NCBI GenBank assembly: GCA_903813345.2 | Contig: CAIIXF020000001.1 | Span: forward strand, 9,858,001-9,922,000 | Source: Owenia fusiformis | Lineage: Eukaryota | Length of the DNA: 64,000 nucleotides | Reading direction: 5' to 3' | Part shown: piece after piece, positions 227-41,900 of the stretch | Position numbering within the stretch: position 1 is the stretch's first letter | How the letters are laid out: each line of letters begins with the position of its first letter | Made by a program: the position numbers and the translations under genes | The notes under the pieces: model-generated | Database searches by the model: none | Told to the model about the DNA's origin: nothing | The model's input: the letters and a program-made list of their open reading frames with translations, nothing else

Positions 227-1054
227 ATGAGATTTTCTGGTAAAGGAGTTATAGTCACTGGATCAAACAGTGGTATTGGGAAGGCCACTGCCCTGTTGAT
301 GGCAAAAGAAGGAGCCAGTGTTGTCATACATTGAAGAGACATGAAAACACTGGAACAGACTATTTAAGAATGCAGGGAAGTTGGTGCACAAAATGCCAAG
401 TTTCCTATTGTTCAGGGAGACTTTAACAGTGACAAGACATTGATACAGCGATTATATGACACTGCTATGGAGACATTTGGGCGAATTGATGTCCTAGTGA
501 ACAATGCCTGTACAGCTGAAATCTGCACATTTGAGAACGTCATAGAGGAACAGTTTGACAAGCAGATCAATGTTGCTCTTAAAGCGCCTGTATTTTTATC
601 TCAGAAATGTTTCCCAGAGCTAAAGAAAAACAAAGGAAACATTGTGAATGTATCAAGCATTGCTGCAGCAAGACCCCCCTCTCTTGGACATGCAATTTAT
701 TCTGTTTCAAAAGCAGCATTGAATCAGTTTACTCAATGCGCAGGGATAGAATATGGTTCTGAGGGTGTCAGAGTTAATGTAGTATGCCCAGGGTTGGTTG
801 CCACTGGATTCTTTATCAAAGCTGGAATTGTTGACACGGAGGCTGAGCAAGATGAACATTATAAGAAACTCACACGTTGTACCCCATTAAAGAAACCTGG
901 TACTCCTGAGGAGACGGCTAAGCTGATTGCGTATCTGGCATCAGATGATGCATCTATGATGAATGGTGCTAACATTATACATGATGGAGGACTAACTCTT
1001 ATGGGACTTGATACAAAAACAATTGAGAATGCTGCAAAGTGTGCCAGCGAATAA
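227..1054 (+). pseudogene. Short-chain dehydrogenase/reductase (classical SDR, FabG-like) pseudogene, intronless
   Basis: ATG at 227 reads MRFSGKGVIVTGSNSGIGKATA (TGxxxGxG cofactor motif) in frame with ORF 440-1054 (NNAC, YSVSK = YxxxK, RVNVVCPG). Two in-frame stops interrupt it: TGA 332-334 (usually Gly in 'HGR') and TAA 365-367. Confidence 0.85.
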
Positions 1055-2330: not shown

Positions 2331-2425
2331 CAGTAAAACTTGATACAGTAAAAGTGGAACACCTTTGGTACCTCTAAAAAGGTGTTCTACTTGTGAGGTG
2401 TTCAACTCATAGAGGTCCATTAAGT
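2331..2425. mobile_element. Left-end relic of a Tc1/pogo-type non-autonomous DNA transposon (TA|CAGTAAAACTT terminus)
   Basis: Starts ta-cagtaaaactt. Its reverse complement aligns with a diverged copy at ~42321-42410 (aatgaacctctataagttgaacacctc...). Confidence 0.45.
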
Positions 2426-14900: not shown

Positions 14901-17900
14901 TTAATACATTGTTCTATCTTCTTCCTCATTGTTGTTATTGTGGAACGCATTATTTGGACTGAAAGCTGGATTATCGTAGATAATTGAAATGTTGAATGCT
15001 TGAGTTGTGCTCGGGTTTGTTTGAAATCTCCCCGATTCATCCTGTTTGTGGTTATCTGGCATCTCAACGGAGACGAGTACCCCAGAGCAAATGTTCATGA
15101 TTGCCACTATGATGATAATCCCAGCACTATAGTGCAGTCCCCAGGGTGTGTCTTTGGTCCATTCTTGTGAGATCACTGCAACCCAGATTGAGATCAGCAC
15201 TAAGTCGAACACCGCTGAAAGTAATAAATCAGTTTATGTTATCAGTTGGTTTTACGTCAGTGCTGTGGAGGGAGGTTGTAGCATATGTGTAAAGACAAAC
15301 TCCTTGTGAATTAATGTTGTATTTGTATGATTCAAGATTAATTAGGTATTTTTCTAGAATTCTGCAAAACATCAACTTGACACATTGAATAGAATATATT
15401 ATTTTCCCATCTGCATCAAACAATTTGAGTAGGGAAATAGAGAATATGTTCATTCATCTATATGTCTCTTCATCCACCATCCATTCTCTTGTCCATTTGT
15501 ATGTCTGGGAGTTAATTCAAATACTGGTTGTTGGATTTGGTTCTTTATAGGCTGAGGTCTTATGAGCATAAAACCTCTGCTTGTGAATAAGTTTCCATTT
15601 TTCTGATCAAAATACCCATTATGTATCATAAAAATACAGATTTTATATGCTATGCCTTATGGCATATTACTCTGCTCAGGAAGGACTTTTCAGGATGGCT
15701 GTTGAATTCAAAATGGTAGTAAATACCAGTTTCCAATTTAAGTCCAAATGTTATAGATAAAATGACTTTGCATTGGACTTCTTCTCGAGAAGGAGTTTCA
15801 TCATGTCATATCATGGGTGTTGATTTTGCCAAAAGGAGAAAATACTACAGCCTTGTTATTTTCATCATGTATTATGTTCAAAAGGACAACTCGGTTAAAG
15901 AAGTCTTGTTTGTTGGGACTTGCAACTCCAGGGATTTGTTGTTTATCAAGTTGTTCATCATATTTCTAGTAAACAATACTTTTATGTACATATAATAAGG
16001 CTAAGGTAGGTTAATGTGTTTTCTGACAAAGCTTTTATTTCTCATGTTTCTTAAAAGCTCAACAACAAGCGAGGGATTCATTTTTTATTAATACTTACTG
16101 CAGACATGAATGGTTGTTATTTGTTAGGACAAATGTGAAAAATAGTATCCATGCATAAGACTGACCAGTATATTAACTGACCCGAGCTTAAGGTTAGATA
16201 CAGTGGACAGTTGTATATTATTGATCAGGGAAAATATTCTTTTAGTTTATGTTTTTGTTTTGCATTGGCAAAGTGAATCTCGAGAAGCAGAATATTAATT
16301 GAATAAAACTTATCGATTTGCTTCATAAACAAGTTCTCCGTACATACCTGCAATGAAGGAGAATCCTGTGGTATGAGAAAGATATTTCCTATTGAATTTC
16401 TTCATGTACATCCATAGGTTGAAGAAGGCCAAGATGATGGCACACTGGGAGACAAGTGCCATACCCGCTGTTAGGATGCTCTTCATATACGTTAGAAGCC
16501 AAACTGAAAGCAATTTGAATACGTATTACATACGTTTTAAAAAATGTATAATTGCCTTGATATATAAAATTTAATTTTGTCATGAATCGACCTGTAGCTT
16601 GTTCATTTCTGACACAAAAATTAAAGAGGCATAAATGGAATTTGCTGTGTTTGAAAGTCAAGTATGTCGGTCTAGAATAATTTCTTCTTGCCTCAAATCT
16701 CTGGTCTAGAATTAAATTCAAATATATTCAAGGAATGGGATGAAATAACACAGTTTGATTTTGCTTTGTTAAAAGAGAGTTTCATCTACACTCCTTGTGT
16801 TAAAGATAATCATTTATTCTGGCCTTAACCAATTAAAATACTGAGAATACGGTTGATAAAAAGGTCCAGATATCCAATCAAAATAGAATTCAATTAATTT
16901 TATACCTCATAGGTACCTGGCATTCATTTTGTAAAGAAACTCTCATTAAAAACCATGACAGGTCCATTTTAGGCCATTAAGATCTTAGCAGTATATGACA
17001 CTCAGGGCAGCTTGATGCAATACCAGATTTTCTAAGTTGATTGTATCCATGTGAACTGACATGGACTGACACATCAGGTTGATTGTCAGACTGGACAATC
17101 AATTAATGATACATATGTATGTAAATATTGACTATATCTCATAATTACATGCATCAGTAGATAAAGATGTGTAATTGTAATTATACGAACATATCTGTTT
17201 AAGCAAAATATGGCAAATGTAATGAAGGGTGAACGAACATATCATTACCTGTAAAACAATAATTCAGTGCTAAATGCTGTGTTTGACATTCACACAACAT
17301 CATTGTTAAAATGATTAAAAAAACGTATTCCATATTTTTTTAAAAACAAGGCTTGCGATACAGGTTCAACGCACCTCCATGTATTGATTTTACAGTACTT
17401 TCAAACCATAACTGCAAATTTTTTTATGTTTGATCTTCAACTTAATATAATAAAAAACAGATAAAAATCTGTTAGTGTTGATTTAGTTTTAAAACTACTT
17501 GCGTAATATATCATTTATGTTTGTCTAAAGAGAGCATTCAGTCCATTGATATCAACTTTCATATGTCTAGAATAAATATGCCATTAAATTAAAGGAAATT
17601 ATTTGCAATAATGTTATTATTTTTACATGATTCAAGTAGGCAAGTCAAACAAAATTAATGGAGATGTTATTTTCAGGTAAAAAGGTCCCATTAAAATAAC
17701 ATAAAGTATGAAATATTGGCAGGAATAATCCCACATCAAAGTGTAACAAATTTTTACTTTTCAAATTTTCGATTCTTTGTAGTTCTGTGCCATTGTATCA
17801 GTTTTCTTACAGTTAACACAATGAGAAAGTGTTTTCCAGTTTGGTTGATAAGTAGTATACTTACATGAATGTATGTGACACTAAAGGAGTAGGCAGAATC

Positions 17901-20900
17901 ATGTAAACTGTTCGATTTTGTGAGATTTCTTTTTGCTTTCATTTGTTTACATTTTTCTCACCTTACTTTTGAAGAGCTATCTTGACCTACATTCAATTAC
18001 TCGTTTTTTTCGGTCAATTTCGGCATGATAATAACCAATGAAGATTGGTTTATGTTATATTTATTTAGTTTATACATTTATCTAGTTAATTATATACTAA
18101 ACATGTATTAATGTTACATTAGATAGCACAGATTATGAGTTCTAAATGAAGCCAGTTATTTTGCACTATTCATATCCTGATTGCATCATAATAATTGTAC
18201 ACCAGTCTTGTCCTGTCCAGGGGCCTAGGTATTGCATCAGCCCATTAATCACTTGATAGGTTCGTGTGCAAAACCTAGTACATGTTACATACATGTCTGG
18301 GGTATAAATAGAGACGACCAGGTGACTCAGCAGGCATTTTCTAGCTGGAACTGAGCGAGGACAGGCCTGTGTGCCTCCAGGAATTGACGCTTGATGGACT
18401 TAGGCTAATTCTACCCATATATCTGATGGACTTAGAAGATTTTCATCACATATATTGAGGGACTTAGATGATTTTACCCTGGTATATTTAGAGGATCTTA
18501 GGCAGATTCGACATACCCGTTGAGGGACTTAGAGGATTTTATCCTGGTATACTTCGAGGATCTTAGGCAGATTCGACAAACCCAGTGAGGGACTTTGAGG
18601 ATTTTACCCAGAGGTATTTAGAGGATCTTGGACAGATTCAACACACCTGTAGAGACGGAGTGGATTTTTAGGTAGAGGTATACTTAGAGGCATACCTGTA
18701 GATGGACTTAGCAGATTCTAGGTTGATGCAATTAGAGGATATTACCTTGAGGGACTTAGCCAATATTCACCATAGTTGCCTGGAGTTTGATGCCCAGAGG
18801 AACTTAAGGAATATTCACGTATATATTGAGGGACTTAGAATATTCATAGCTGGCTAGAGGAACTTTGTAGATCTCCCTACATCTACAACTTGATGAACTT
18901 AGAATATTACCAGCTTGAGAGACAGAATATTCATCGCTGGTTAGAGGAACTTTGTAGATTTCACACATCTATAACTTGATGGACTTGGAATATTCACCAG
19001 CTTGAGGGACTTAGAATATTCATTGCTGGCTAGAGGAACTTTGTAGATTTCCTACATCTACAACTTGAACTTAGAATAATACCAGCTTGAGGGACTTAGA
19101 ATATTCATTGCTGATTAGAGGAACTTTGTAGATTTCCTATATCTATAACTTGGTGGACTTAGAATATTTGCCAGCTTGAGGGACTTAGAATATTCATCTC
19201 TACCTAGAGGAACTTATCTACAACTTGATGAACTTAGAATATTCATCGCTGATTAGAGGAACTTTGTAGATTTCCTACATCTTCAGTTTGATAGACTTAG
19301 AGTGTTCACAACTCATCTGATGAACTTAGATTATATCGCCAACTTGGTGGACTTAGAATATGCATCGCTCAGCTGATGAAAAACTATATTAGTGATGAAC
19401 ACTTTTATATATAGATAAATATACAAGTATAATTGCATAAAGGACTTATAATTAGTACCTCTGAAACTGAAACTTAGTATCAATTGTCGATTTGTGTTGT
19501 ATTATTTTGAGGCGGATGAAGCCAGAATATATGTTGTTAATTTTATATTAAATATTGTGTCTCTTTATTCATGCGTACATTTAATGTGTACCAAGTATCC
19601 TACGAAGTAACCTGGTCTGATTAATAACAACATCCACACTACCACAAATCAGGCCAGACGTTACACTGGTGGCAGCGGTGGGATTGTGTGAATTTCAAGA
19701 TACAATATTAGAATTGACACCATATTAAGAGTATGGAGAAAGAGCAGGATGTTCCATCTCCTCCAGTTGTGGAGGACATGACAGACATGGAATCAGAGAC
19801 CATTCGAAAGACCGACAAAGTTGGTATAGATAACCCTAGAGTGAATGATAATACCATGCCCGTGCCGGGATATGACCTTACTCAAGGAGAGTCTCCAGGA
19901 CCCAGACTGAAGACTGTGAAACTGGATACAAGAGAGATGGGATTACCCAGTCTTTGGAGTACAGGGTACTGGACAGGGAAAGTCTTAGACACTTCTCCCA
20001 TCAGTAGTGATGATGAAGAACCTCAGAGGAGGCATAGATTTCCTCTCACTTCAACTGCAGCTGATATTGAATCAGTTAGTTTCAGAGAAAAGGGGGACAG
20101 AATGAGACAAAACTTAAATTGGATCCAGGGAAAGTTGGAATCCAGAATGGATGTATTGAGTGAGGCTATGATAGCTCAACAGAAACAGATGCAAAAACTA
20201 GCCGAGACCCAACAGGAATGTATGACACAAGTAGTCAATACCCAGAAGAGTCTCATGCTAGGACTTACTGAGTCTCAAAAGACTCAGATACAGAATATTC
20301 GTCAGATTGCAGAACAAGTTCGATGTAGCCAGGACAACCAAGAGGCACAGTTTCAGGGCCTGAAGGGTCAGATGAAAAATTTTCAACAGACCATGGAGAA
20401 TTCTATCATTGAAAAGCTTCAGCATAGCCTTTCTATTGAATTAGGTGCACCTGATACATCAGAGAAGCCACAACTGCTTGGTAATGTTCGAAGTCATTCA
20501 TCACATGTAGCTCAGACTCAGTCTCCTGTGATTTCTGCTGGAAGGGATGAATATCCAACAGTTAGAACTCAACTGACCATTAGGTCTAAGGACAGTTTCA
20601 CACAAACCCCACTGGCTTCAGGTGTAAAAAGGCCCCAGAAGCTAATTAGGCAAGGTAGAAATTCCTTGAGACCTGGTGAAGAACTGATGGAGCACCATGC
20701 TAAAGGTCTTACCCAGCAACCTAAAGACCTAGAAGGATTAAGTCAGGTCGAGTACAGGCTAGGAAGTGAACAGGCTGACTTCACCTCTGCTCAAAACTTC
20801 CCACGGTACCCCGATGAGGAGATTGATAATTTGACGAGGTATATACCGCCAAAGGTAGCTTCTAATTTGAATCAGGCCAATACAGTGGATGATGGACTTG

Positions 20901-23900
20901 TTAAGACAGAGACCACCAATGGTTCTGATCTATCTACAGAGCTCATCAAGATGTGTTCGAAGCTATGTGATAAAGTTTCAAAAGATAACTCTGAAAAGGC
21001 CAGTAAAAGCAGAATTAAGCCAGATGTTTACAATGGAACGACACCATGGCAGGACTATAGAGCCTACTTTGAGATTTGTGCCGAGGCAAATAATTGGACG
21101 GAAGAAGACAAGAGACGATTCTTGGCCACAAGCCTCCGTGGCCCTGCCCAGCAAATGGTTCTGGAGTTGGGCCAAGATTACAGTTATGAGCAACTTCTGC
21201 TTGCTTTAGAAAAACGCTTTGGTCCAGGGGGCAAGGCCGAAGTTTACGAGGCTGAGCTGGTAGGTCGAATTCGTAAGCCCAAGGAAACCTTGCAAAGTTT
21301 AGGCCAAGATATAAGAAGACTTACGTCCTTGGCATACCCTGAAATGAGCCGAACTGCACAAGACCGTCTGGCTAGACGCAGCTTTGAGCAGGCTATACTT
21401 GAGGAGGAGATAAGACGGGCTATACGTACAAAGGATTGCAGTACGCTAGATAAAGCCATTGAAGTAGCCCTTAAAGAAGAATCATATATGGAATCTGAGA
21501 GGATACGAAAGGGCCAAAAACCTAAGTGGAGCCAAGTAAATGCCCTGGAGGATAAAGATGATGAACTACAAAAACTTGTCAAGCTAGTTGAGGGCATTAA
21601 GTTGGACACTCAGAAAAGCATACAAACAGAGTGTAGCCGAAACTTAGGAAAAATGATAGAATTACTGGCCAAACCGAATAAGACTGAAACTGAGACGACT
21701 GGTCAACCTGTTAGAAAATTTAAGTGTTTTTATTGTAATAAGATTGGTCACAAAATAGCAGATTGTTACTCAAGAAAACGTGCAGAAGAACAGACTAAAG
21801 AAACCCCAGAGAAATCTAGCCAAGTAGCAACAGTGAGATTCCAATTGTTACAGGGGAAAAATGTAAAGTCCTACAAAGACACTCAGAAGATAGTTGCCCA
21901 TGGGAGAGTATGTGACACAGATGTTGCATTTTTGGTGGACTCTGGGGCAGTTAGCACCATCCTTAGTTCAGAGGTTTACCGAAAGATCCCTGAACACAGA
22001 AGACCCAAGATGGAGCCACCAAAGAAGATCATTGTACAAGCTGGTGGAGAACCTTTGGGAGTAAAAGGCGTTGTACAAACAGGTGTCAGTCTTGATAATC
22101 ATGAAGAAACTTTAACTGTAGTGGTGGCAGACATTCAGTTTGATGGAATTTTGGGTACAGATTACTTGGCTGCTTCCAGTGCCATATTAGACTATGGTCA
22201 GGGTACAATGACTATGGGACCAGAGAATTCAAAAATTGCCCCCGCACGAGCCCTTGAAGTAACAATTTCCAATGATCAACACAGAAGAATCGAGGACAGG
22301 AGGTTTGCTGGACCAGAACCTACAAGTGAGGTGTTGCAACCACAAAGATCTCCAATGAGAGTGACCTTGGGATTAGGAGATAGATCCCATTTTAGAGGAC
22401 CGAGCAATATCAGGGGCAAGAGATTGTGCCAATACACAGGGGACAGAGAAGGTTATGACTGTAATCCTTCCAGTAATGTGTGCATGACCAGGTCTTGTCC
22501 AGTTAAAGTGCCACGAGCAAGAGTTTATAGGGGAAGGTATCACAGGACTCGACAAAGGAGTGAAACAGATAGTGATTGGCGAAACTACCATTATTCTTCG
22601 AACATGAAACACTAGCTTGAGTGCAGAGCCTGGGTTACTTATTTCCTGCAAGGACATTTAGCCTAAGTATAATTTTGTAATACTTAGTAGAGATCATGAT
22701 ACTTAGATAGGGTTGTAACTTGTGGAAAGTTACTTTTGTATGGAAATTATTAGATAGTTAGATAGATACTTGTGTTAAGGTTTGAGATAAACCAGAGTTA
22801 GAGAACTTTCATTGTACATTACATTGGTAGTTAACCCCGGGGTTATACACATTTTGTAAGTTTGTATTATAGCTAGTTAGGAAAATTTGTTATCTTTTGT
22901 GTACTTAGGCTTGGTGTTGTTAACACCAAAATCATTGGATGGGAGGAGTGTAACAAATTTTTACTTTTCAAATTTTCGATTCTTTGTAGTTCTGTGCCAT
23001 TGTATCAGTTTTCTTACAGTTAACACAATGAGAAAGTGTTTTCCAGTTTGGTTGATAAGTAGTATACTTACATGAATGTATGTGACACTAAAGGAGTAGG
23101 CAGAATCATGTAAACTGTTCGATTTTGTGAGATTTCTTTTTGCTTTCATTTGTTTACATTTTTCTCACCTTACTTTTGAAGAGCTATCTTGACCTACATT
23201 CAATTACTCGTTTTTTTCGGTCAATTTCGGCATGATAATAACCAATGAAGATTGGTTTATGTTATATTTATTTAGTTTATACATTTATCTAGTTAATTAT
23301 ATACTAAACATGTATTAATGTTACATTAGATAGCACAGATTATGAGTTCTAAATGAAGCCAGTTATTTTGCACTATTCATATCCTGATTGCATCATAATA
23401 ATTGTACACCAGTCTTGTCCTGTCCAGGGGCCTAGGTATTGCATCAGCCCATTAATCACTTGATAGGTTCGTGTGCAAAACCTAGTACATGTTACATACA
23501 TGTCTGGGGTATAAATAGAGACGACCAGGTGACTCAGCAGGCATTTTCTAGCTGGAACTGAGCGAGGACAGGCCTGTGTGCCTCCAGGAATTGACGCTTG
23601 ATGGACTTAGGCTAATTCTACCCATATATCTGATGGACTTAGAAGATTTTCATCACATATATTGAGGGACTTAGATGATTTTACCCTGGTATATTTAGAG
23701 GATCTTAGGCAGATTCGACATACCCGTTGAGGGACTTAGAGGATTTTATCCTGGTATACTTCGAGGATCTTAGGCAGATTCGACAAACCCAGTGAGGGAC
23801 TTTGAGGATTTTACCCAGAGGTATTTAGAGGATCTTGGACAGATTCAACACACCTGTAGAGACGGAGTGGATTTTTAGGTAGAGGTATACTTAGAGGCAT

Positions 23901-26900
23901 ACCTGTAGATGGACTTAGCAGATTCTAGGTTGATGCAATTAGAGGATATTACCTTGAGGGACTTAGCCAATATTCACCATAGTTGCCTGGAGTTTGATGC
24001 CCAGAGGAACTTAAGGAATATTCACGTATATATTGAGGGACTTAGAATATTCATAGCTGGCTAGAGGAACTTTGTAGATCTCCCTACATCTACAACTTGA
24101 TGAACTTAGAATATTACCAGCTTGAGAGACAGAATATTCATCGCTGGTTAGAGGAACTTTGTAGATTTCACACATCTATAACTTGATGGACTTGGAATAT
24201 TCACCAGCTTGAGGGACTTAGAATATTCATTGCTGGCTAGAGGAACTTTGTAGATTTCCTACATCTACAACTTGAACTTAGAATAATACCAGCTTGAGGG
24301 ACTTAGAATATTCATTGCTGATTAGAGGAACTTTGTAGATTTCCTATATCTATAACTTGGTGGACTTAGAATATTTGCCAGCTTGAGGGACTTAGAATAT
24401 TCATCTCTACCTAGAGGAACTTATCTACAACTTGATGAACTTAGAATATTCATCGCTGATTAGAGGAACTTTGTAGATTTCCTACATCTTCAGTTTGATA
24501 GACTTAGAGTGTTCACAACTCATCTGATGAACTTAGATTATATCGCCAACTTGGTGGACTTAGAATATGCATCGCTCAGCTGATGAAAAACTATATTAGT
24601 GATGAACACTTTTATATATAGATAAATATACAAGTATAATTGCATAAAGGACTTATAATTAGTACCTCTGAAACTGAAACTTAGTATCAATTGTCGATTT
24701 GTGTTGTATTATTTTGAGGCGGATGAAGCCAGAATATATGTTGTTAATTTTATATTAAATATTGTGTCTCTTTATTCATGCGTACATTTAATGTGTACCA
24801 AGTATCCTACGAAGTAACCTGGTCTGATTAATAACAACATCCACACTACCACAAATCAGGCCAGACGTTACAAAAGTCATGTATTTGATGCAGTTTAAAA
24901 TTAAAGTGACCATGTAATGATTGCTGTGATACTAAGACAGTTAATTTAAACAGACAATTCCTGATAATTCAGATTAATTAACAGAGATGTTGTTTTCTTA
25001 TACGAAGGTCCCATTAAAATAGAATAAAAACTTTAGCACGAAATATCCCACACCAGTCATGAATTTGATGCAGCTTACAATTAAGGTGACCATATCCACG
25101 ATTGCTGTGATACTTAGACAGTTGATTTAAAAATACAATTCCTCATCATGATAAACCATGCCATCTCAAATCTTCTCAGCCCTGAGATGCCATGATATAA
25201 AGAGCTTGATTTGGCGATCCAGGAGAGCCCAAAATTGAGGATTTTTGAGATCTTTCATCCTTGCTGCAAGGGTATCTTTCATCCCAGCTCATATTTCATC
25301 TAATTGGGGTCATAAAACTTGTGTAACTGTGCCTGTTGCAATGCCTATTATGTAGTGTATTGACATAAGGTAGATGATTACATGATAACAATCACACTTA
25401 TTGACAGTTATAACTCTTCCCATCTGATGTGCTCAGATCACAGAATATGCCTCATAATATCAGAGCATGTTACAGGTGAAACAGAAAGATGCTATGAGTA
25501 TCAGAATGACAATTCCTCATAATTCAGATTTTCACCCACACTCCCTTCTTGCCTTGTGAAATACAGAATTTGTTTATTAAGACAAATTCTGAGGTTAAAA
25601 AGATACTGTCCCCAAGGATGGAATGGTATTTCCAGCCTACTTCCACTTGATGGATCAAATAAACCATACATGAACTAAGGATTAAGGCTAATGCCGGTCA
25701 ATAGACTAGATGCGAGTAGAAAAAATCTTGATTTACGTCATTAAATATTCAAAATTCAGTCAAAGTGATCTCATATTTGAAATCTGCATGTAAAAGTACA
25801 TCTAGAAATATGGTTTCGAAAATTGTCTATCAACTTTGAAAATTTAATTATTTTTGAAAATGTGAATTCTTGTTCGGGTTGATTCCACATAGACCCCATG
25901 TTACAAAATCACAAAAAGTGAATTATCTTCTCTTGTATTGGGCAGATAACATTTTCTTTTACTGGATATATTTTAATTTGCATAACTATTTGATACATAG
26001 GGGTTATATGAAAATTGAACCACGCAAATAGATGTAATTTAAGTTAAAGGGAATTTCTACTATACCCGCCATGCTATCTGACCCGAACGAGCCACCTGGT
26101 GGTGAATCTGGTAACTACCTACTCGCATCTGCGTTATTGGTCAAAATGAGAAGTCCTTTTACTTTTTGACACATTCATTTCCTTTAATATTTGAAGGTTG
26201 GGATCATATGATGTTAGTTGTCTTAAAGATATAATTATGTGGCATACTGATATGACAAGGTCAACTTCTATCTATCCATTCCCGATGCTGTATTGAAGAT
26301 TCTCTAATGAATGAGACAATAGATGATGTTTAATGATGGACATGCCCGGATGGACATGGTTAAATGAGCTTATCTTATATTTAACCAAATGAGTCATTGG
26401 GGGTCACTGTCTTTGGTGCTGTGATTGAATATAGAGAAACCATCAGAGGAATTATTGATTAATCAACCAAAGCTCAACAGGTTGTTAGCATAGACTCTTG
26501 TGCCTAGCAAAGCAAATAGAGTTTCCAATATTCTTCCATTGAAGACTATTGACGCGATTCTCTCCTTTGATTCATTTATCATAATGTTAATTTCTATAAA
26601 TACATGTATGTTTGTTCATTTAACTACCGTGGGCAGAATAGAAATATCAGCTGTCTGATAAAGTTTAAATTCTAAGTCCGATGCCTTACAGACTTAGAAC
26701 CTCTGAAGGAATTTTCAATATTATATATGGCCTGTTGATTTAAATTGTCCACCATGTTAAGTTAACATGTTAAGTTAACATTGTTAACGTACTAACTGAT
26801 CACTTCAGCAAGTAATTTCAAAATAAGGAATGATTTGAGATATATTTGTTTTATTTTATTTGTTGGGATTTGCTACTCCTCAGAGTTGCTGTTTTTTGGT

Positions 26901-29900: not shown

Positions 29901-32900
29901 TTTCTCAATCCGGCAAAGTTCCTCAATCAGGCTTGAGTTATATAGACAATGTCGGGAAATGACAGAGTTTCTCAGTCCAGCTGTATTTCCTCAATCAGGC
30001 TGGAATATTCCTCAATCCAGCAGAGTCCTTCAAACAGGCTGGAGTTGCATCAACTATGTCGGGAAATGACAGAGTTTCTCAGTCCAGCTGTATTTCCTCA
30101 ATCAGGCTGTAATATTCCTCAATCCAGCAGAGTCCTTCGAACAGGCTGGAGTTGTATCAACTATGTCGGGAAATGACAGAGTTTCTCAGTCCAGCTGTAT
30201 TTCTTCAGTCAGGCTGGAATATTGTATAAACTATGTCGGGAAGTGACAGAGTTTCTCAATCCAGCAAAGTTCCTCAATCAGGCTGGAATAGTATGAACTT
30301 TGTCTGGGAATGGCAAAGTTCCTCAGTTCAGCAGTATTACTTCAGTCAGGCTGGAATATTGTATAAACTATGTCGGGAAATGACAGAGTTTCTCAATCCA
30401 GCAAAGTTTCTCAATCAGGCTGGAATATTATGAACTTTGTCTGGAAATGGCAAAGTTCCTCAGTCCAGCAGTATTTCTTCAGTTAGGCTGGAATATTGTA
30501 TAAACTATGTCAGGAAGTGACAGAGTTTCTCAATCCAGCAAAGTTCCTCAATCAGGCTGGAACAGTATGAACTTTGTCTGGAAATGGCAAAGTTCCTCAG
30601 CCCAGCGGTATTACTTCAGTCAGGCTGGAATATTGTATAAACTATGTCGGGAAGTGACAGAGTTTCTCAATCCAGCAAAGTTCCTCAATCAGGCTGGAAC
30701 AGTATGAACTTTGTCTGGAAATGGCAAAGTTCCTCAGTCCAGCAGTATTACTTCAGTCAGGCTGGAATATTGTATAAACTATGTCGGGAAATGACAAAGT
30801 TTCTCAATCCAGCAAAATTCCTCAATCAGGCTGGAATATTGTATAAACTATGTCGGGAAATGACAGAGTTTCTCAGTCCAGCTGTATTTCTTCAGTCAGG
30901 CTGGAATATTATGAACTATGCCTAGCCTGGAAGTGACAACGTTCCTCAATCCAGCCGTATTTCTTCAGTAGGCTGGAATATTCCTCAATCCAGCAAAGTT
31001 CCTCAATCAGGCTGGAATATTCCTCAATCCAGCAGAGTCCTTCAAACAGGCTGGAGTTGTATCAACTATGTCGGGAAATGACAGAGTTTCTCAGTCCAGC
31101 TGTATCTCTTCAGTCAGGCTGGAATATTGTATAAACTATGTCGGGAAATGACAGAGTTTCTCAATCCAGCTGTACTTCTTCAGTCAGCAAATTGATGAAA
31201 AATAATCGATCTAAAAATAGCTAAGTTTCTCAAGTTAGCTAAATTATGAAAAGAATAATGTAAGTTTCTCAATCTCAAAAAAATATCAAAGTTTCTCAAG
31301 TTAGCTAAATTATGGAAAGAATAATGTAAGTTTCTCAATCTCAAAAATATCAAAGTTTCTCAAGTTAACAATAGAAAAACATAAGTTGCTTAATAACGCC
31401 TGAAAATACAAGTTTCTGGCACTCCTTCTCAATCAGGCTGGAATAATGCAAACTAAGTCTGGTATTGACAAAGTTTCTCGATCCAGCAGTAATTCTTCAG
31501 TCGGGTTGAAATATTCTAAAACCTTGCCTGGAAATGACAAAGTTTCTCAGTTCAGCAGTATTTCATCAAACGGGCTGGAATATTCTAAACTATGCCTGGA
31601 AATGACAAAGTTTCTCGGTCCAGCAGTAATTCTTCAATCGGGCTAAAATATTCTAAAACTTTGCCTGGTAATGACAAAGTTTCTCAGTTCAGTAGTATTT
31701 CATCAAACGGGCTGGAATATTCTAAACTATGCCTGGAAATGACAAAGTTTCTCGGTCCAGCAGTACTACTTCAATCAGGCTGGAGTTATCTAGACTATGT
31801 CTGGAAATGACAAAGTTCCTCGATCCAGCAGTATTTCTTCAAACAGGCTGGAATATTCTAAACTATGTCTGGAAATGACAAAGTTCCTCGATCCAGCAAA
31901 TCTTCTAAGTTTCTCATCAATCCTCAAATGAAACACTGGCACGGGAGATGTGTTCCAACCAAAAGTTGCCTACGTGTCTGATAGGAGCGATCCGGGCTCT
32001 GTATTTATACCCCAGACAGGTTTTGCACACGAACCTAACAAGTGATTAGTGGGCTGATGCAATACCTCGTCACCGGATGTAATCACTGAATCAGGATATT
32101 AGTTTCGTAAAAATAACTGGCTTCACTTACAAATCACGATCTCGGCTTTTACACCCAATATCAATACATGTTTGGTACATAATCAACAAGATTATAGTAT
32201 AAACTCAATAAATATAACCATAAATGATCGCTATCTAGTCTAATTACACTTCGATTTGATCGAATTGAAAGCAGGAAGTGATAATTTCTGTAAAATGATA
32301 GTCGAGAGTTCTCGATCAACCGTAACCATAGTCACTGGTAAAACTACCCGATCAACATTAACCAAATCTGAACTCGATAAAATAAAAAGTTGCTAACACC
32401 TCTGTAAGTACAAATAAAGTGCTTTAATCGATACTACAATCAAAGATCTTAATAATCTCAACTGTGAAGCACTTAAATCAAAAAATTTAAAATCAAAATT
32501 TTGTTACACTCCTCCAATCCAATGATTTTGGTGTTAACAACACCAAGCCAAAGTACAATAAAAAAATAACAAAATTTTGCTATCTTAGCTATCCTACAAA
32601 ATACAATCTTACAATTTTCTAACCTCGAGGTTAACTAGCTTTCAATACAATGTACAATGAATATTCTAAACTCTGGCTTATCTCAAACCCTAACACTAGA
32701 TATCTAACTATTTGAATGTCTAACTCTGTGTACATTAATAACTTTTCACAACTCTCAGCTAAATGTTAGGTATGAATATAAAATTATACTCATGCTAAAT
32801 GTCAACTCTCAAGTTAGGGCTTCACTGTAGGGGAATAACAACGATCCCTCCAATCATCATATATGTCACGTCCAGGGTGAGTCCTCAAATATCTCCCTCT

Positions 32901-35900
32901 GTAAACTTTGGCTAGAGGCACTTTAACTGGAGACGTTCTCTTGTCATCATCCTGACTAGGAATTCTATGGTAGAAGTCTTCACTTTGTCCAGACACTTTA
33001 CAAAATCTCTTGTCCATGTCACGCCTCTGCCCTCTGAAGCGGGAAAAATCAGTTCGATCTGCAGCTGTCCTCTTGGGTTGTGGTGATCTGTTTCTCAGCC
33101 TTAATTTTTCACGTCGACCTCCCTGTCTGTGTTTTACTTCACTCTCTCCATCTTTAGGCATTCCTGAGTCTACTTGGTGATCATCAAAACTTCCCGGATT
33201 CTCTGGTTCAAAAGTCATTTTACACTCGCGATAGTTCAATACAGCTCCAGAGGCAGCTAGGAAGTCTGTGCCCAAAATTCCCTCAAAGTGAATATCAGCC
33301 ACGACCACCTCCAAGTTCTGTACATGCCCGTCAATTTTCAAGCTAACTGGTATAACACCCTCCATATGCAAGAGTTGCCCACCTGCTTGCAAAATGGTCT
33401 TCTTAGGTGGCTTAAGCTGGGGCCTTTTGCGTTTAGGTATATTCTGGTAGACCGTTGAACTCATGATTGTGCTAGCGGCTCCAGAGTCAACTAAAAATGA
33501 AACATTGGTGTCGCAAACTATGCCATGTGCCACTATCTTCTGAGTGTCCTTGGAAGACTGAACACCATTCCCCTGCAGAGATAGAAATTCAACGGTAGCA
33601 ATCTGGCTAGATCTCTCTTGTGCTGCTTTATCTCGCTCTTCGACACGCTTCCTTGAATAACAATCAGCGATCCGGTGTCCAGGTTTGTGACAATAGAAAC
33701 ATTTTGGTTTATTGTTCATATTCACTCTATTTGTAGAATCCGATTTGGTTAACTTTATCAGGTCAACCATTTTCTCCAGGTTCCTGGTGCACGTTTCTTG
33801 CACAGCTTGTTGCATTTGTTTGACCATTTGAGCCATCTTCTGAAACACATCTTCCTTATTATCAGGAGTACTTATAGAGTTGCAGTACTCTTCCTCAGTA
33901 TCAATGGCGTTTACTCTGAACTTTGGTTTTTGGCCTTTCCTTATTCGTTCTGATTCTATGTAGGACTCTTCTTTAAGCGCAACTTCGATGGCCTTATCGA
34001 GAGTATTACACTCCTTTGCATGGATAGCCCTCCTGATCTCCTCCTCTAAAATGGCCTGCTCAAAACTCCGTCTAGCCAGACGATCTTGCGCCGCACGGCT
34101 CATTTCTGGATAGGCCAAAGCGGTGAGACGTCTTATATCCTGGCCCAATGTCTGTAGAGTCTCTTTGGGTTTTCGGATTCGCCCAACTAGTTCGGCCTCG
34201 TAGACCTCCGCCTTTCCACCAGGACCGAATCGCTTCTCTAAGGCTAAAAGGAGCTGATCATAGGTATAATCTTGCCCCATCTCTAATACCATTTGCTGGG
34301 CAGGGCCTCGAAGACTGGTGGCTAGAAACTGCCTCTTATCTTCCTCAGACCATTTATTAGCTTCCCCGCAGATCTCAAAATAAGCCCTATAGTCTTGCCA
34401 TGGTGTATTCCCGTTATACACATCAGGTTTGATTCTGCTCTTGCTAGAAGTTCCAAGAGTCTCTTTGGAGAGTTTAGCACACAACTGAGAGCACATCTTA
34501 ATAAGCTCTGTTGAGAGATGAGAATCATTAACGTTCTCCATCTTCTCAGGCCTTTCTATAGTGTTATGGCGCTTTGGACTCGAAGTTTCCTGGACATCAT
34601 CAAGTTCTTCTTGACACTGAGGTAAGTGAGGAGTCGGGATGTCACCACCATGCCCTCTCTCCAGCCAGTCCTCCATCGGACCTAACCCTCCATCTTTAGG
34701 TTGTTGATTACAATCTGCTGCATTATCTGGCGGCAATTCGGTATCAGGTCTCTGGCAAAACCTGTCTTGCCGAAGCAACCTCCAGGGCCTTTTCACACCT
34801 GAAGTTGATGGCACTTGTATGGAACTGGCTTTAGACATACTGATGGGTTGCATCCGTTCTGTTTGGTTAGGATCTCTTCTAACCGATATTGCAGGCTTCT
34901 GAATTCTGGCCTCAGACCTACAATGACCACTAACATCACCCAGTGTCTGTGACTTACCTGGAGTAGTACGAAACTCAACAGGCATGTTACTCTGAATTTG
35001 GTTGATGATTGATTTCTCCATGGCGTTTTGAAAATTTTCCATCTGACCCTTCATTTCCTGTAATTGTGCCTCCTGATGATCCTGACCAATACGAACTTGT
35101 TCTGCAATTTGATTGATGTTGTGTATTTGAGTGTTTTGAGACTCCGTAAGTCCTATGACCAACTTCTTTTGGGTTTCCACAACTTGAGTCATACATTTCT
35201 GTTGGGTCTCTGCTATTTTCTGCATCTGTCGTTGTTGAGCAACTAAAGTCTCACTAAAAATATCCATCTTTTGCTCAAATTTGCTTTCAACCATAGTGAG
35301 ATCTTTTCTCAGTGTGTCCTCCTCTCTTAAACTCCTTGCCGGCCTGCCTAGGGCAGTAGAGGTTAAAGGAAATCTCGGTCTTCGGGGAGGATCGCCGACA
35401 TTCTGATTACTCGGTTCAAAGGGAGTTTTGGCATCTATCATTACACCTCCGGTCCAATACCCTGTACTCCATGAGCTGGGTAATCCCCTCTTCTCAACAT
35501 CTGTTTCTGGAGTTTTGGGTCTAGCTCCTTCCAAATGAGTGACCTTTCCAAAAGTATCACTCTGTGTATCAGTATCCCTCATTTCCTGTACAGTTGCATC
35601 AGCTGCTCCTGGATTGTCAATTTCCATTGCGTCATTCTTGAAAAACACGGTTTTTTCAAGGTCACCATCTCCTACACCCTCTACATCCAGAGGAGGTGGC
35701 AAATTGGAATCTTGCTCCATTTCAGGCGTATAATATGCAATATAAGATTTCACACGTTATCCCACCGCTGCCACCAGTGTAACATTCAGCCTAATTATGG
35801 TAGTGTGGATGTTGTTTAATAGACTGTGTCACTGTGGGTCTCAGGGTATACGTTAAATATACACGTGGGAAATCTGTACATAACATTCATATACAATTTT

Positions 35901-38900
35901 ATATATAACACATATATTGTGGCATTTATAGCCCATCAAATTAATACATGGAAATCGATGTTTTCAGTTACTGAGGCACTATATAAAAGTTCTTGATACG
36001 TGATCACTGTCAATAAAACACTAATTATAAGAGTCCTATATACGAAAATACTTGTACTCTCAATTGTCTCTTGAGCTCTGGACTTGTTCAATTCAGCTAG
36101 GTATAAATCTGGGAATAACAGTCTCTCATTACAGCTTCAGTGATTATGCCTTGGAATAACAGTCTCTCAATGAAGGCAAATCTCAAGCTGGCCTGAAATA
36201 AAATAACTAAGTCTGGAATCAACTTAGTTCCTCAATCAAGCTGGAGTTATCTAAACTAAGTCGGGAAATGGCAAAGTTCCTCAATATGTGGAATCTACCC
36301 AAGATTCCCCGTAGTTCCCAAATAAACTAAGTGTCTCGTACTTAGTTTCAATCAAAGTCATCCAGGTCGGGGGTGACACTATTCAACGTCCCCAACAGGC
36401 AACATCGATGAAGATCCTCTAAGTTCCTCAATATGTGGAATCTGCCTAAGATTCCCAGTAGCTCCTAAATAAACTAAGTGTCTCGTACTTAGTTACTCAA
36501 CAAGTGGAATCTGCCTAAGATCCCTGGTAGCTCCCAAATAAACTAAGTGTCTCGTACTTAGTTTTCATCAAAGTCATCCAGGTCAGGGGTGACACTATTC
36601 AACGTCCCCAACAGGCAACATCGATGAAGATCCTCTAAGTTCCTCAAGATGTGGAATCTGTCTAAGAATCCCAGTAGCTCCTAAATAAACTAAGTGTCTC
36701 GTACTTAGTTCCTCAACAAGTGGAATCTGCCTAAGATCCCTGGTAGCTCCCAAATAAACTAAGTGTCTCGTACTTAGTTTTCATCAAAGTCATCCAGGTC
36801 AGGGGTGACACTATTCAACGTCCCCAACAGGCAACATCGATGAAGATCCTTTAAGTTCCTCAATATGTGGAATCTGTCTAAGAATCCCAGTAGCTCCTAA
36901 ATAAACTAAGTGTCTCGTACTTAGTTCCTCAACAAGTGGAATCTGCCTAAGATCCCTGGTAGCTCCCAAATAAACTAAGTGTCTCGTACTTAGTTTTCAT
37001 CAAAGTCATCCAGGTCAGGGGTGACACTATTCAACGTCCCCAACAGGCAACATCGATGAAGATCCTTTAAGTTCCTCAATATGTGGAATCTGCCTAAGAT
37101 TCCCAATAGCTCCTAAATCGATGAAGATCCTCTAAGTTCTTCAATATGTGGAATCTGCCTAAGATTCCCAGTAGCTCCTAAATCGATGAAGATCCTTTAA
37201 GTTCCCCAATATGTGGAATCTGCCTAAGATTCCCTGTAGTTCCTAAATCGATGAAGATCCTTTAAGTTCCTCAATATGTGGAATCTGCCTAAGATTCCCT
37301 GTAGTTCCTAAATCGATGAAGATCCTTTAAGTTCCTCAATATGTGGAATCTGCCTAAGATTCCCAGTAGCTTCTAAATCGATGAAGATCCTTTAAGTTCC
37401 TCAATATGTGGAATCTGCCTAAGATTCCCTGTAGCTCCTAAATCGATGAAGATCCTCTAAGTTCTTCAATATGTGGAATCTGTCTAAGAATCCCAGTAGC
37501 TCCTAAATAAACTAAGTGTCTCGTACTTAGTTCCTCAACAAGTGGAATCTGCCTAAGATCCCTGGTAGCTCCCAAATAAACTAAGTGTCTCGTACTTAGT
37601 TTTCATCAAAGTCATCCAGGTCAGGGGTGACACTATTCAACGTCCCCAACAGGCAACATCGATGAAGATCCTTTAAGTTCCTCAATATGTGGAATCTGCC
37701 TAAGATTCCCAATAGCTCCTAAATCGATGAAGATCCTCTAAGTTCTTCAATATGTGGAATCTGCCTAAGATTCCCAGTAGCTCCTAAATCGATGAAGATC
37801 CTTTAAGTTCCCCAATATGTGGAATCTGCCTAAGATTCCCTGTAGTTCCTAAATCGATGAAGATCCTTTAAGTTCCTCAATATGTGGAATCTGCCTAAGA
37901 TTCCCTGTAGTTCCTAAATCGATGAAGATATTTTAAGTTCCTCAATATGTGGAATCTGCCTAAGATTCCCAGTAGCTTCTAAATCGATGAAGATCCTTTA
38001 AGTTCCTCAATATGTGGAATCTGCCTAAGATTCCCTGTAGCTCCTAAATCGATGAAGATCCTCTAAGTTCTTCAATATGTGGAATCTGCCTAAGATTCTC
38101 AGTAGTTCCTAAATAAACTAAGTGTCTCGTACTTAGTTTCCAACAAAGTCATCCATGTCGGGGGTGACACTATTCAACGTCCCCAACAGGCAACATCGAT
38201 GAAGATCCTCTAAGTTCCTCAATATGTGGAATCTGCCTAAGATTCCCTGTAGTTCCTAAATCGATGAAGATCCTTTAAGTTCCTCAATATGTGGAATCTG
38301 CCTAAGATTCCCTGTAGTTCCTAAATCGATGAAGATCCTTTAAATTCCTCAATATGTGGAATCTGCCTAAGATTCCCTGTAGTTCCTAAATCGATGAAGA
38401 TCCTTTAAGTTCCTCAATATGTGGAATCTGCCTAAGATTCCCAGTAGCTTCTAAATCGATGAAGATCCTTTAAGTTCCTCAATATGTGGAATCTGCCTAA
38501 GATTCCATGTAGTTCCTAAATCGATGAAGATCCTTTAAGTTCCTCAATATGTGGAATCTGCCTAAGATTCCCAGTAGTTCCTAAATAAACTAAGTGTCTC
38601 GTACTTAGTTTCCATTAAGTCATCCAGGTTGAGTGAAAATATTCTAAGTTCCTCAACAGCTCCTCCAAATGAGCTAAGTTTCTGGTACTTATTCTCACTT
38701 CAGTCAGGCTGGAATATTGTATAATCTATGTCGGGAAATGACAGAGTTTCTCAATCCGGCAAAGTTCCTCAATCAGGCTTGAGTTATATAGACAATGTCG
38801 GGAAATGACAGAGTTTCTCAGTCCAGCTGTATTTCCTCAATCAGGCTGGAATATTCCTCAATCCAGCAGAGTCCTTCAAACAGGCTGGAGTTGCATCAAC

Positions 38901-41900
38901 TATGTCGGGAAATGACAGAGTTTCTCAGTCCAGCTGTATTTCCTCAATCAGGCTGTAATATTCCTCAATCCAGCAGAGTCCTTCGAACAGGCTGGAGTTG
39001 TATCAACTATGTCGGGAAATGACAGAGTTTCTCAGTCCAGCTGTATTTCTTCAGTCAGGCTGGAATATTGTATAAACTATGTCGGGAAGTGACAGAGTTT
39101 CTCAATCCAGCAAAGTTCCTCAATCAGGCTGGAATAGTATGAACTTTGTCTGGGAATGGCAAAGTTCCTCAGTTCAGCAGTATTACTTCAGTCAGGCTGG
39201 AATATTGTATAAACTATGTCGGGAAATGACAGAGTTTCTCAATCCAGCAAAGTTTCTCAATCAGGCTGGAATATTATGAACTTTGTCTGGAAATGGCAAA
39301 GTTCCTCAGTCCAGCAGTATTTCTTCAGTTAGGCTGGAATATTGTATAAACTATGTCAGGAAGTGACAGAGTTTCTCAATCCAGCAAAGTTCCTCAATCA
39401 GGCTGGAACAGTATGAACTTTGTCTGGAAATGGCAAAGTTCCTCAGCCCAGCGGTATTACTTCAGTCAGGCTGGAATATTGTATAAACTATGTCGGGAAG
39501 TGACAGAGTTTCTCAATCCAGCAAAGTTCCTCAATCAGGCTGGAACAGTATGAACTTTGTCTGGAAATGGCAAAGTTCCTCAGTCCAGCAGTATTACTTC
39601 AGTCAGGCTGGAATATTGTATAAACTATGTCGGGAAATGACAAAGTTTCTCAATCCAGCAAAATTCCTCAATCAGGCTGGAATATTGTATAAACTATGTC
39701 GGGAAATGACAGAGTTTCTCAGTCCAGCTGTATTTCTTCAGTCAGGCTGGAATATTATGAACTATGCCTAGCCTGGAAGTGACAACGTTCCTCAATCCAG
39801 CCGTATTTCTTCAGTAGGCTGGAATATTCCTCAATCCAGCAAAGTTCCTCAATCAGGCTGGAATATTCCTCAATCCAGCAGAGTCCTTCAAACAGGCTGG
39901 AGTTGTATCAACTATGTCGGGAAATGACAGAGTTTCTCAGTCCAGCTGTATCTCTTCAGTCAGGCTGGAATATTGTATAAACTATGTCGGGAAATGACAG
40001 AGTTTCTCAATCCAGCTGTACTTCTTCAGTCAGCAAATTGATGAAAAATAATCGATCTAAAAATAGCTAAGTTTCTCAAGTTAGCTAAATTATGAAAAGA
40101 ATAATGTAAGTTTCTCAATCTCAAAAAAATATCAAAGTTTCTCAAGTTAGCTAAATTATGGAAAGAATAATGTAAGTTTCTCAATCTCAAAAATATCAAA
40201 GTTTCTCAAGTTAACAATAGAAAAACATAAGTTGCTTAATAACGCCTGAAAATACAAGTTTCTGGCACTCCTTCTCAATCAGGCTGGAATAATGCAAACT
40301 AAGTCTGGTATTGACAAAGTTTCTCGATCCAGCAGTAATTCTTCAGTCGGGTTGAAATATTCTAAAACCTTGCCTGGAAATGACAAAGTTTCTCAGTTCA
40401 GCAGTATTTCATCAAACGGGCTGGAATATTCTAAACTATGCCTGGAAATGACAAAGTTTCTCGGTCCAGCAGTAATTCTTCAATCGGGCTAAAATATTCT
40501 AAAACTTTGCCTGGTAATGACAAAGTTTCTCAGTTCAGTAGTATTTCATCAAACGGGCTGGAATATTCTAAACTATGCCTGGAAATGACAAAGTTTCTCG
40601 GTCCAGCAGTACTACTTCAATCAGGCTGGAGTTATCTAGACTATGTCTGGAAATGACAAAGTTCCTCGATCCAGCAGTATTTCTTCAAACAGGCTGGAAT
40701 ATTCTAAACTATGTCTGGAAATGACAAAGTTCCTCGATCCAGCAAATCTTCTAAGTTTCTCATCAATCCTCAAATGAAACACTGGCACGGGAGATGTGTT
40801 CCAACCAAAAGTTGCCTACGTGTCTGATAGGAGCGATCCGGGCTCTGTATTTATACCCCAGACAGGTTTTGCACACGAACCTAACAAGTGATTAGTGGGC
40901 TGATGCAATACCTCGTCACCGGATGTAATCACTGAATCAGGATATTAGTTTCGTAAAAATAACTGGCTTCACTTACAAATCACGATCTCGGCTTTTACAC
41001 CCAATATCAATACATGTTTGGTACATAATCAACAAGATTATAGTATAAACTCAATAAATATAACCATAAATGATCGCTATCTAGTCTAATTACACTTCGA
41101 TTTGATCGAATTGAAAGCAGGAAGTGATAATTTCTGTAAAATGATAGTCGAGAGTTCTCGATCAACCGTAACCATAGTCACTGGTAAAACTACCCGATCA
41201 ACATTAACCAAATCTGAACTCGATAAAATAAAAAGTTGCTAACACCTCTGTAAGTACAAATAAAGTGCTTTAATCGATACTACAATCAAAGATCTTAATA
41301 ATCTCAACTGTGAAGCACTTAAATCAAAAAATTTAAAATCAAAATTTTGTTACACTTCCTTGGCGGAAATAAATGTTCTTCGTTCAAAAGAAATCACCTT
41401 GGAACTCTAAGCATTTTTGTAACAAATAAATGACTTTCCTGCTCAATGTAGTGACATTTACCACTGTCAGGAACAATAGGTGGCTAATATTAATTCTATG
41501 ATAAAATGTTTGAGATTTGAATTTAAAAAGTGCTGAATTGACGTTAGAAGTGTTTATGCCCAGTAGACCGATCAATAAGCTACTGTCCATTCATTAAATT
41601 ATAGGTACGTTTGAGGGATAATTTTATACTTATTGATATTTTTATATTGCCAGATTCTCACTTATGGTTGATGTGATGGGTAAATCATTTACAGGGTGGG
41701 CCAAAAATGGTTTGTATGTGAAGGCAAATTCCAAGTTTCCAGTTACCTTTTGATATTACAAGTTTAGTAATTTTAGAATTGACCCACATATTTTCTGAAA
41801 TAATTTCTAAATATTTTGAACTGAACTGGAATAATTCTATATTTTGTCACTGAGTTCTACAAGTTTTGATATATGTATGTATGTATATTTTGAGTTATCT

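Follow-up and report, generated by a model that had tools for sequence, protein, structure and literature searches.

Two LTR retrotransposons with young, matching terminal repeats

The window analysed here, a stretch of 64,000 nucleotides of contig CAIIXF020000001.1 (positions 9,858,001 to 9,922,000, forward strand), contains two complete long terminal repeat (LTR) retrotransposons, which we call E1 (+ strand) and E2 (- strand). Their outer parts and priming signals are listed below with window coordinates; they comprise the LTRs, the target site duplications (TSDs), the primer binding sites (PBSs) and the 3' untranslated regions (3'UTRs) with their polypurine tracts (PPTs).

17738..17741, + strand: left TSD of E1, AAAG
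17742-24872, + strand: E1, whole element, 7131 bp
17742..19665, + strand: 5' LTR of E1, TGTAAC..GTTACA, 1924 bp
19667..19685, + strand: PBS of E1, complementary to the 3' end of tRNA-Leu(AAG)
22616..22948, + strand: 3'UTR of E1, with the PPT GGATGGGAGGAG at its end (22937-22948)
22949..24872, + strand: 3' LTR of E1, 1924 bp
24873..24876, + strand: right TSD of E1, AAAG
26928..26931, - strand: TSD of E2, GAAG in element orientation
26932-41354, - strand: E2, whole element, 14423 bp
26932..32508, - strand: 3' LTR of E2, 5577 bp, with arrays of 65, 107, 137 and 216-bp units
32509..32813, - strand: 3'UTR of E2, with the PPT GGATTGGAGGAG at 32509-32520
35759..35776, - strand: PBS of E2, tRNA-Leu(AAG)
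35778..41354, - strand: 5' LTR of E2, 5577 bp
41355..41358, - strand: TSD of E2, GAAG in element orientation

All the structural marks of an LTR retrotransposon, namely direct LTRs with TG..CA ends, TSDs, a PBS and a PPT, are present in both elements, and each of the four LTRs starts with TGTAAC and ends with GTTACA. The two LTRs of E1 show no mismatch over 1924 bp, and those of E2 differ at a single position (27810) over 5577 bp. If 1e-9 to 1e-8 substitutions per site per year are assumed, the insertion ages have upper 95% bounds of about 0.08-0.8 million years (Myr) in E1 and 0.04-0.4 Myr in E2; both are very young insertions. LTRs make up 3848 of the 7131 bp of E1 (54%) and 11154 of the 14423 bp of E2 (77%), and the interiors measure 3283 and 3269 bp, respectively. 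The elements are spaced 2059 bp apart with their 3' ends facing each other. Read in element orientation, both TSDs fit RAAG (AAAG and GAAG), a target preference that two insertions can only hint at.

The priming signals are equally well defined. The window contains the PBS, TGGTGGCAGCGGTGGGAT, at two places only, each one base past a 5' LTR, versus 0.04 occurrences expected by chance. The first 18 nt of mammalian tRNA-Leu(AAG) 3'-end probes have exactly this sequence, as these are given in the available text of two publications (PMC7997516, PMC6103689). At the other end of each interior, the PPTs of E1 and E2 directly adjoin their respective 3' LTRs, and the PPT block of the elements reads GGATKGGAGGAG.

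Each interior encodes Gag and a protease in a single frame and lacks Pol

Each interior holds one intact open reading frame (ORF), which fills 88% of it. Only one other stop-to-stop frame of at least 120 amino acids (aa) lies inside either element, and it is 121 aa long and antisense. The ORFs and the parts recognised in that of E1 are as follows.

19733..22615, + strand: ORF of E1 (P0001), 960 aa, with N-terminal region, capsid, zinc knuckle, protease and tail
20990..21532, + strand: capsid region of E1, about residues 420-600, PNMA2-capsid-like fold, the part matched by database relatives
21722..21766, + strand: CCHC zinc knuckle of E1, residues 664-678
21902..22168, + strand: retropepsin of E1, residues 724-812, with the VDSGA active-site motif and ILGTD
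22229..22612, + strand: C-terminal tail of E1, residues 833-960, colinear with the tail of E2
32814..35720, - strand: ORF of E2 (P0002), 968 aa, with an architecture like that of E1

Both ORFs scored above the Pfam cutoff for Asp_protease_2 (31.1 and 31.5 bits versus 24.3), both carry the VDSGA motif, and the closest solved protein by sequence in the Protein Data Bank is Retroviral-like aspartic protease 1 (E 7.4e-8). Pfam matches to zf-CCHC, PNMA and Ty3_capsid all stayed under their cutoffs (15.0 bits versus 20.8 for zf-CCHC in E1), and the knuckle residues C266, C269, H274 and C279 are nearly invariant in an alignment of 55 sequences. An AlphaFold2 model of residues 400-830, computed from that alignment, reached a mean predicted local distance difference test (pLDDT) score of 85.8. 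When the model was submitted to Foldseek, it matched DDI1 and the retropepsins of equine infectious anaemia virus (EIAV) and human immunodeficiency virus (HIV) with E about 1e-6, as well as the PNMA2 capsid with E 2e-5 over 175 columns. The order found is a capsid with the Ty3/Arc/PNMA fold, a CCHC knuckle and a retropepsin, with fold matches identifying the capsid and with the Pfam scores of capsid and knuckle below cutoff.

The two ends of the ORF are of a different kind. A coiled-coil stretch lies within the first about 400 residues; these and the last about 130 residues match no Pfam family, and neither the N-terminus nor the tail has BLAST relatives below E 0.016 among 152 stored proteins. 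Profile comparison of the tail with the region between protease (PR) and reverse transcriptase (RT) of Gag-Pol relatives likewise gave no match. Judged by domain matches and the structural model, the ORF is predicted to consist of an N-terminal coiled-coil region, a capsid (CA), a CCHC nucleocapsid (NC), an active-looking retropepsin and a basic tail, and both ends appear to be lineage-specific.

We found no trace of Pol in either element. Neither ORF has a Pfam match to RVT, RNase H or rve at E<=1. When the window was searched by tblastn with the sequences that follow the protease in four related proteins, 15 matches resulted, the best with E 0.56, and none in the interiors fell below E 6.8. 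RT and the order PR-RT-RNase H (RH)-integrase (IN) that characterise Ty3/gypsy elements are absent from E1 and E2, which are without RT, RH and IN; GAG and a protease in a single ORF with neither RT nor integrase is the composition of a semi-autonomous GAG-Pro element. Ty3/Gypsy replication requires Pol.

These results bear out every structural statement made in a sequence-only reading of this DNA. The LTR ends, 4-bp TSDs, PPTs and (near-)identical LTR pairs were reproduced at the same positions, as were the lengths of the interiors, the LTR shares and the single intact Gag-PR ORF of each interior. The tRNA-Leu assignment of the PBS, proposed there, is upheld by the match to the published tRNA-Leu(AAG) probes. 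The reading had also noted that no RT, RNase H or integrase remnant is present, in agreement with the Pfam and tblastn searches, and that the LTRs are filled with arrays, which are real.

Relatives of the Gag-protease region include Gag-Pol proteins with the Ty3/gypsy domain order

A HMMER scan of 1.84 billion representative proteins recovered 7086 relatives at E<=1e-3, 105 of them at E<=1e-30. For each of the top 150 relatives, the best stretch falls between query residues 362 and 839, a segment comprising capsid, knuckle and protease, with identities of 27-54%; the closest relatives found are 35-49% identical over parts of the capsid. Because these matches are confined to the capsid-knuckle-protease region, the lineage as such, N-terminus and tail included, is absent from the scanned library. 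A word-based protein search with the capsid-PR region gave one match at 31% identity, and the same kind of search with the whole ORF gave none. Scans of the ESM Atlas returned generic Gag-protease clusters only. Metagenome contigs yielded nothing when scanned with a single protein and, when scanned with a two-sequence alignment, ten distant loci with 24-63% identity over short segments and no member of the lineage; a scan of viral contigs gave nothing.

Pfam analysis of nine relatives found RT in three (P0006, P0056 and P0142), the C-terminal domain of integrase only in one (P0019) and no Pol domain in five. Full Gag-Pol proteins with the order PR-RT-RH-IN are represented by P0056 and P0142, and by P0154, which came from the word-based search with 26% identity. 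P0019 (919 aa) consists of Gag, knuckle and protease followed by Integrase_p58_C alone, without RT, RH or the integrase core, and looks like an in-frame Pol-deleted derivative. The relatives without any Pol domain are P0004, P0005, P0007, P0011 and P0016, and post-protease tails of roughly 200-300 aa are seen in P0004, P0011 and P0016. On the kinship of their Gag-PR region (26-30% identity) and on its predicted fold, rather than on RT, E1 and E2 appear related to Ty3/gypsy-type elements.

E1 and E2 diverged long ago and share the same Pol-less 3' end

Young as both insertions are, the ORFs they carry are only 52% identical (514 of 986 columns), and the differences are unevenly spread: amino acid identity is 87% in the capsid, where the nonsynonymous divergence dN is 0.07, 60% in the protease, 38-59% in the N-terminus and 30% in the tail. 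At identical residues of CA-NC, third codon positions match in 43% of cases, and four-fold sites over the whole ORF match in 44%, versus 28% expected from base composition. Synonymous sites are near saturation, and the many synonymous differences reported by the sequence-only reading are confirmed. Low synonymous identity combined with 87% identity of the capsid points to an old split, with the capsid under purifying selection throughout.

In both ORFs alike, profile homology to Gag-Pol relatives stops at residue about 832. Beyond it, the tails of ~130 aa align colinearly and share the conserved block SPVKVP.A.VYRGRY.RT, the stop codon occupies a common position, and CTTGAG follows it directly in both elements. 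The 3'UTRs align over 288 columns with 77% identity, which exceeds the conservation of synonymous sites. Since two independent deletions would not leave a common junction and common downstream sequence, these data argue for a single ancestral loss of pol. Probably, pol was lost once, before the sublineages of E1 and E2 split, and the lineage then persisted for long without it. The earlier suggestion that the architecture is a stable design and not a one-off deletion is therefore supported from two copies alone, by the colinear tail, stop and 3'UTR and by the conserved capsid. We consider it probable that E1 and E2 represent two long-diverged sublineages of one semi-autonomous LTR family that replicates with its own Gag and protease and with Pol supplied by a partner.

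The LTR arrays lie downstream of the promoter and in transcribed sequence

Similarity between the LTRs of E1 and E2 is largely limited to the opening about 30 bp, the closing about 40 bp and one block of about 230 bp, which is 79-96% identical and ends in GGGGTATAAATA. This conserved TATA box lies at LTR position 558 in E1; in E2 it is at position 496. The corresponding parts of the 5' LTR of E1 are the following.

18299..18310, + strand: promoter block of the E1 LTR with GGGGTATAAATA, LTR position 558, in the sole long stretch conserved between E1 and E2
18380..19390, + strand: arrays of the E1 LTR, 65-bp and 89/174-bp units, with 15 sense GAGGRACTT cores

In the 5' LTR of E2, arrays extend over LTR positions about 620-5080 and contain 29 sense GAGGRACTT cores. 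Array periods are 65, 89, 107, 137 and 216 bp, units of differing length share the GAGGRACTT core, and every array of both elements lies 3' of the TATA box. All 88 matches to GAGGRACTT in the window fall inside the four LTRs and on the sense strand of the element, with 0.98 matches expected.

We then compared these positions with raw RNA reads from two runs with the same organism label, X16 and X17, about 6% of each run being sampled. In X16, the five bins of 18320-19479 had read depths of 121, 80, 98, 28 and 24, as compared to 4.5 in the bin preceding the TATA box and 3.5 in the one that follows the arrays. In X17, depth ranged from 9 to 112 in the bins of 18320-19479 versus 0.4 in the bin before. 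The array reads are taken to be sense RNA, by the read direction usual in most stranded libraries. Many of them are 90-95% alike and contain repeat-number joints, which indicates that other copies or solo LTRs are their main source. RNA coverage, together with the position of the arrays 3' of the TATA box, places the arrays in the transcribed R/U5 leader and not in U3. The LTRs have no conserved poly(A) signal (AATAAA is absent and ATTAAA occurs at non-homologous places), so the R/U5 boundary is undefined.

Each of the 65-nt array units (at 37273-37337 on the - strand, 18493-18509 on the + strand, and elsewhere) contains a small inverted repeat whose loop is conserved. In E2 it reads GGAAUCU-UAGGC-AGAUUCC, in E1 GGAUCU-UAGGC-AGAUUC, and the stems differ by one extra base on each side. 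Each E2 LTR has 24 occurrences of CTTAGGCAGATTC, and each E1 LTR has two. Fold z-scores of array units ranged from -3.1 to +1.2, with about -2.3 for the 65-nt units of E2 and -0.2 for the E1 unit, and the small hairpin alone recurs. Structure in the array RNA is a lead only, the copies being too alike for covariation. Rfam at gathering thresholds gave 0 matches in 17000-42000 of the window.

Copies, variants and alternative explanations

Fifteen sequencing runs from four studies of one organism contain part of the E1 interior, and two of them contain at least half of the sampled words; among the listed runs containing the stretch, none is recorded as RNA. Contigs of run X1 cover every one of the 30 bins, and 2-4 distinct contigs differ from the window at single interior sites, which shows that several variants of the E1 interior exist and that the family is multi-copy in at least this run. 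Among the rows listed, at 90% identity or more, there was no well-supported loose end or joint leading from the interior toward a pol-bearing variant, a negative of little weight. The search for a partner in protein and metagenome database scans returned distant relatives only.

Several observations count against a single, long-persisting Pol-less family. The synonymous divergence between the two ORFs (19733-22612 compared with 35720-32817) is a mosaic: at identical residues, third-position identity is 0.62 in the N-terminal 406 residues versus 0.43 in CA-NC (residues 407-700; Fisher p 3e-4), and it is 0.54 in the PR-tail part. This suggests either recombination that exchanged the capsid module or an extra constraint on the 5' coding RNA, and recombination among lineages would weaken the single-loss argument for some segments. 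The deletion junction cannot be mapped, the tail having no detectable homology to anything. Nothing else in the window shares the PBS or the sequence of E1 or E2. RNA depth over the interior is very low, at 0-4.7 on either strand in X16 and X17. The type of run X1 is itself a guess ('DNA?'), and contig depth is not copy number. Finally, in the raw whole-genome shotgun (WGS) run X19, with the same species label and sampled to roughly 18%, 257 reads were placed on 16000-22948 of the window at 90% identity or more; 238 of these fitted in part only, 215 were 90-95% alike, and interior depth was about 0-4 per bin, with most bins at 0. Either this scarcity argues against a very high copy number in that individual, or it reflects low coverage or a diverged individual; copy number may differ from one individual to another.

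The low depth of X19 would also fit the view that E1 and E2 are two independent, sporadic internal deletions of two autonomous gypsy-type families, each with a master of its own that mobilised it on one or a few occasions, and that they lie 2 kb apart by chance. Deletion derivatives are common, and P0019 looks like an in-frame internal deletion of this kind. However, Gag-Pol homology ends at the same residue in both copies, which also have in common the conserved tail block, the stop position and the 3'UTR, and both ORFs have stayed intact despite near-saturated synonymous divergence. We regard two separate deletions as unlikely.

A second alternative is that the elements form one half of a split, two-component retroelement, whose partner would be Pol-only or Gag-defective, so that the relationship is one of mutual dependence and not of parasitism. 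The strong constraint on capsid and protease shows that the proteins are in use, and Gag-supplying non-autonomous families of wheat have been proposed to feed a shared system, according to the accessible part of the report (PMC11302176). No partner of any kind was seen, however, and nothing sets mutual dependence apart from the ordinary parasitism of a complete element, which leaves a split system improbable in our view. It is very improbable that the elements are immobile, with LTR identity due to gene conversion or assembly polishing and the ORFs kept as domesticated Gag-protease host genes: such Gag-derived genes exist, and PNMA and SASPase-like proteins are the nearest solved relatives, but TSDs, PBS, PPT and full LTR pairs are intact in both copies, the two diverged paralogues are adjacent, each within its own LTR pair, and contigs with variant interiors occur in other runs.

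A proposed mode of replication

Complete cis signals, intact ORFs, the lack of Pol and purifying selection on the capsid are features of both elements. For the semi-autonomous family favoured here, we propose that the element would supply its own Gag and protease for replication, and that RT, RNase H and integrase would come in trans from an autonomous partner recognising the same PBS, PPT and LTR termini. Pol normally enters particles as a Gag-Pol fusion, and the capsid of a dependant must therefore stay compatible with that of its partner. The strong conservation of the capsid may thus stem from a requirement for joint assembly with the Gag-Pol of the partner.

The LTRs owe their size to expandable arrays built on the sense GAGGRACTT core between the TATA box and the PBS. 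Such arrays may act as multimerised packaging or competition signals, or as enhancer or insulator sites. A more far-reaching version of this proposal is that E1 and E2 belong to an animal 'satellite' lineage specialised for trans-replication, with a helper-compatible capsid, a CA-NC module swapped by recombination, and leader cores (up to about 30 per LTR) and hairpins that, as packaging or competition signals, let its RNA out-compete that of the helper, the giant LTRs being adaptive. The swap is suggested by the deeper synonymous divergence of CA-NC relative to its flanks. Taken as a whole, we hold this version to be doubtful, and the term 'satellite-virus-like', which the sequence-only reading had applied to the elements, is used here as an analogy.

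Comparison with known non-autonomous elements

Several classes of dependent LTR elements share some of these features. Large retrotransposon derivatives (LARD) and terminal-repeat retrotransposons in miniature (TRIM) are non-coding, rely on Pol acting in trans and have kept LTR, PBS and PPT. E1 and E2 differ from both, since their interiors are coding, with ORFs of 960 and 968 aa that appear to be under selection. TR-GAG elements of plants are small, non-autonomous and carry gag only. With gag as the sole coding domain, this definition does not describe E1 and E2 either, which have a protease above the Pfam cutoff and measure 7 and 14 kb.

The closest likeness is to gypsy elements of wheat and barley, RLG_Sabrina_SA and RLG_WHAM, whose sole ORF encodes GAG and protease (PMC9744471, available portion). 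RLG_Sabrina_SA is described there as comprising 5397 elements, and for these 8-kb families RLG_Wilma is the proposed autonomous partner. Like E1 and E2, these families have GAG and protease only, without RT or integrase, and form diversified, persistent lineages. They are plant elements for which the portion of the source that was available reports no array-filled LTRs, whereas E1 and E2 are from an apparently animal genome, have LTRs of up to 5.6 kb and encode a Gag unrelated in sequence. An animal host is suggested by the match of the PBS to mammalian tRNA-Leu(AAG) probes and by the animal phyla among the closest ESM Atlas clusters of the neighbouring RT frame at 3950-5557. The likeness to the Triticeae families is one of design and does not imply kinship; the scanned protein library is without names. 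The novelty attached to the architecture in the sequence-only reading is consequently overstated, since lineages with Gag plus protease only, and with thousands of copies, are known from wheat (PMC9744471, same portion).

In Triticeae centromeres, the non-autonomous partner of the pair RLG_Quinta/RLG_Cereba has kept gag for tens of millions of years, according to the accessible text (PMC11302176). RLG_Quinta resembles E1 and E2 in its intact gag, and it shares PBS and LTR termini with its helper RLG_Cereba. As described in that text, it encodes GAG and an unknown domain without a protease and integrates in a centromere-targeted manner, whereas E1 and E2 have the protease. Large tandem-repeat content is known from cqUNK of Culex quinquefasciatus, which are non-coding LTR elements with PBS and TSD and for which, according to the available portion of the report, no master copy was found (PMC3286476). 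An enhancer or insulator role of the cqUNK repeats is discussed there by analogy with the 5'UTR repeats of gypsy (PMC3286476). In cqUNK, as far as that portion shows, the repeats lie between short LTRs (about 200-340 bp) and there is no coding sequence, whereas in E1 and E2 they lie inside the LTRs and the Gag-PR ORF is intact.

We found no animal LTR lineage with Gag and protease only in the literature, which is weak evidence, coverage being partial and Repbase and Dfam lying outside the search. If E1 and E2 do represent such a lineage, the semi-autonomous Gag-protease strategy would extend from grasses to an apparently animal genome and would seem to evolve repeatedly, and the elements would be well suited to asking how the capsid of a Pol-less element is kept helper-compatible. 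LTRs with arrays make up as much as 77% of an element, and the transcribed, motif-dense leader arrays are candidate cis signals for the choice of RNA to be packaged and a possible seed of satellite DNA.

Other features of the window

On the left flank of E1, reads of the RNA run X16 cover 16000-16927 in one direction at a depth of 3-9, and the short segment around 16752-16790 has further copies elsewhere, as many loose ends in X19 show; the region is either a transcript upstream of E1 or a further repeat. A series of open frames at 52534-59285 (- strand), in sequence of higher GC content, has coiled-coil-type matches below cutoff (PUMA_CC and others) and no tblastn relation to E1 or E2. A 535-aa open frame at 3950-5557 (+ strand) matches RVT_1 with E 3.8e-25 and was unmatched by the gypsy Pol queries. 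Its closest ESM Atlas clusters are RT proteins from Ctenophora, Arthropoda, Mollusca and Chordata, and it is probably a remnant of a non-LTR retrotransposon. Near the left end of the window, at 368-1054 (+ strand), a 228-aa open frame contains a short-chain dehydrogenase domain (adh_short_C2, E 2e-44) and is probably a host gene or exon.

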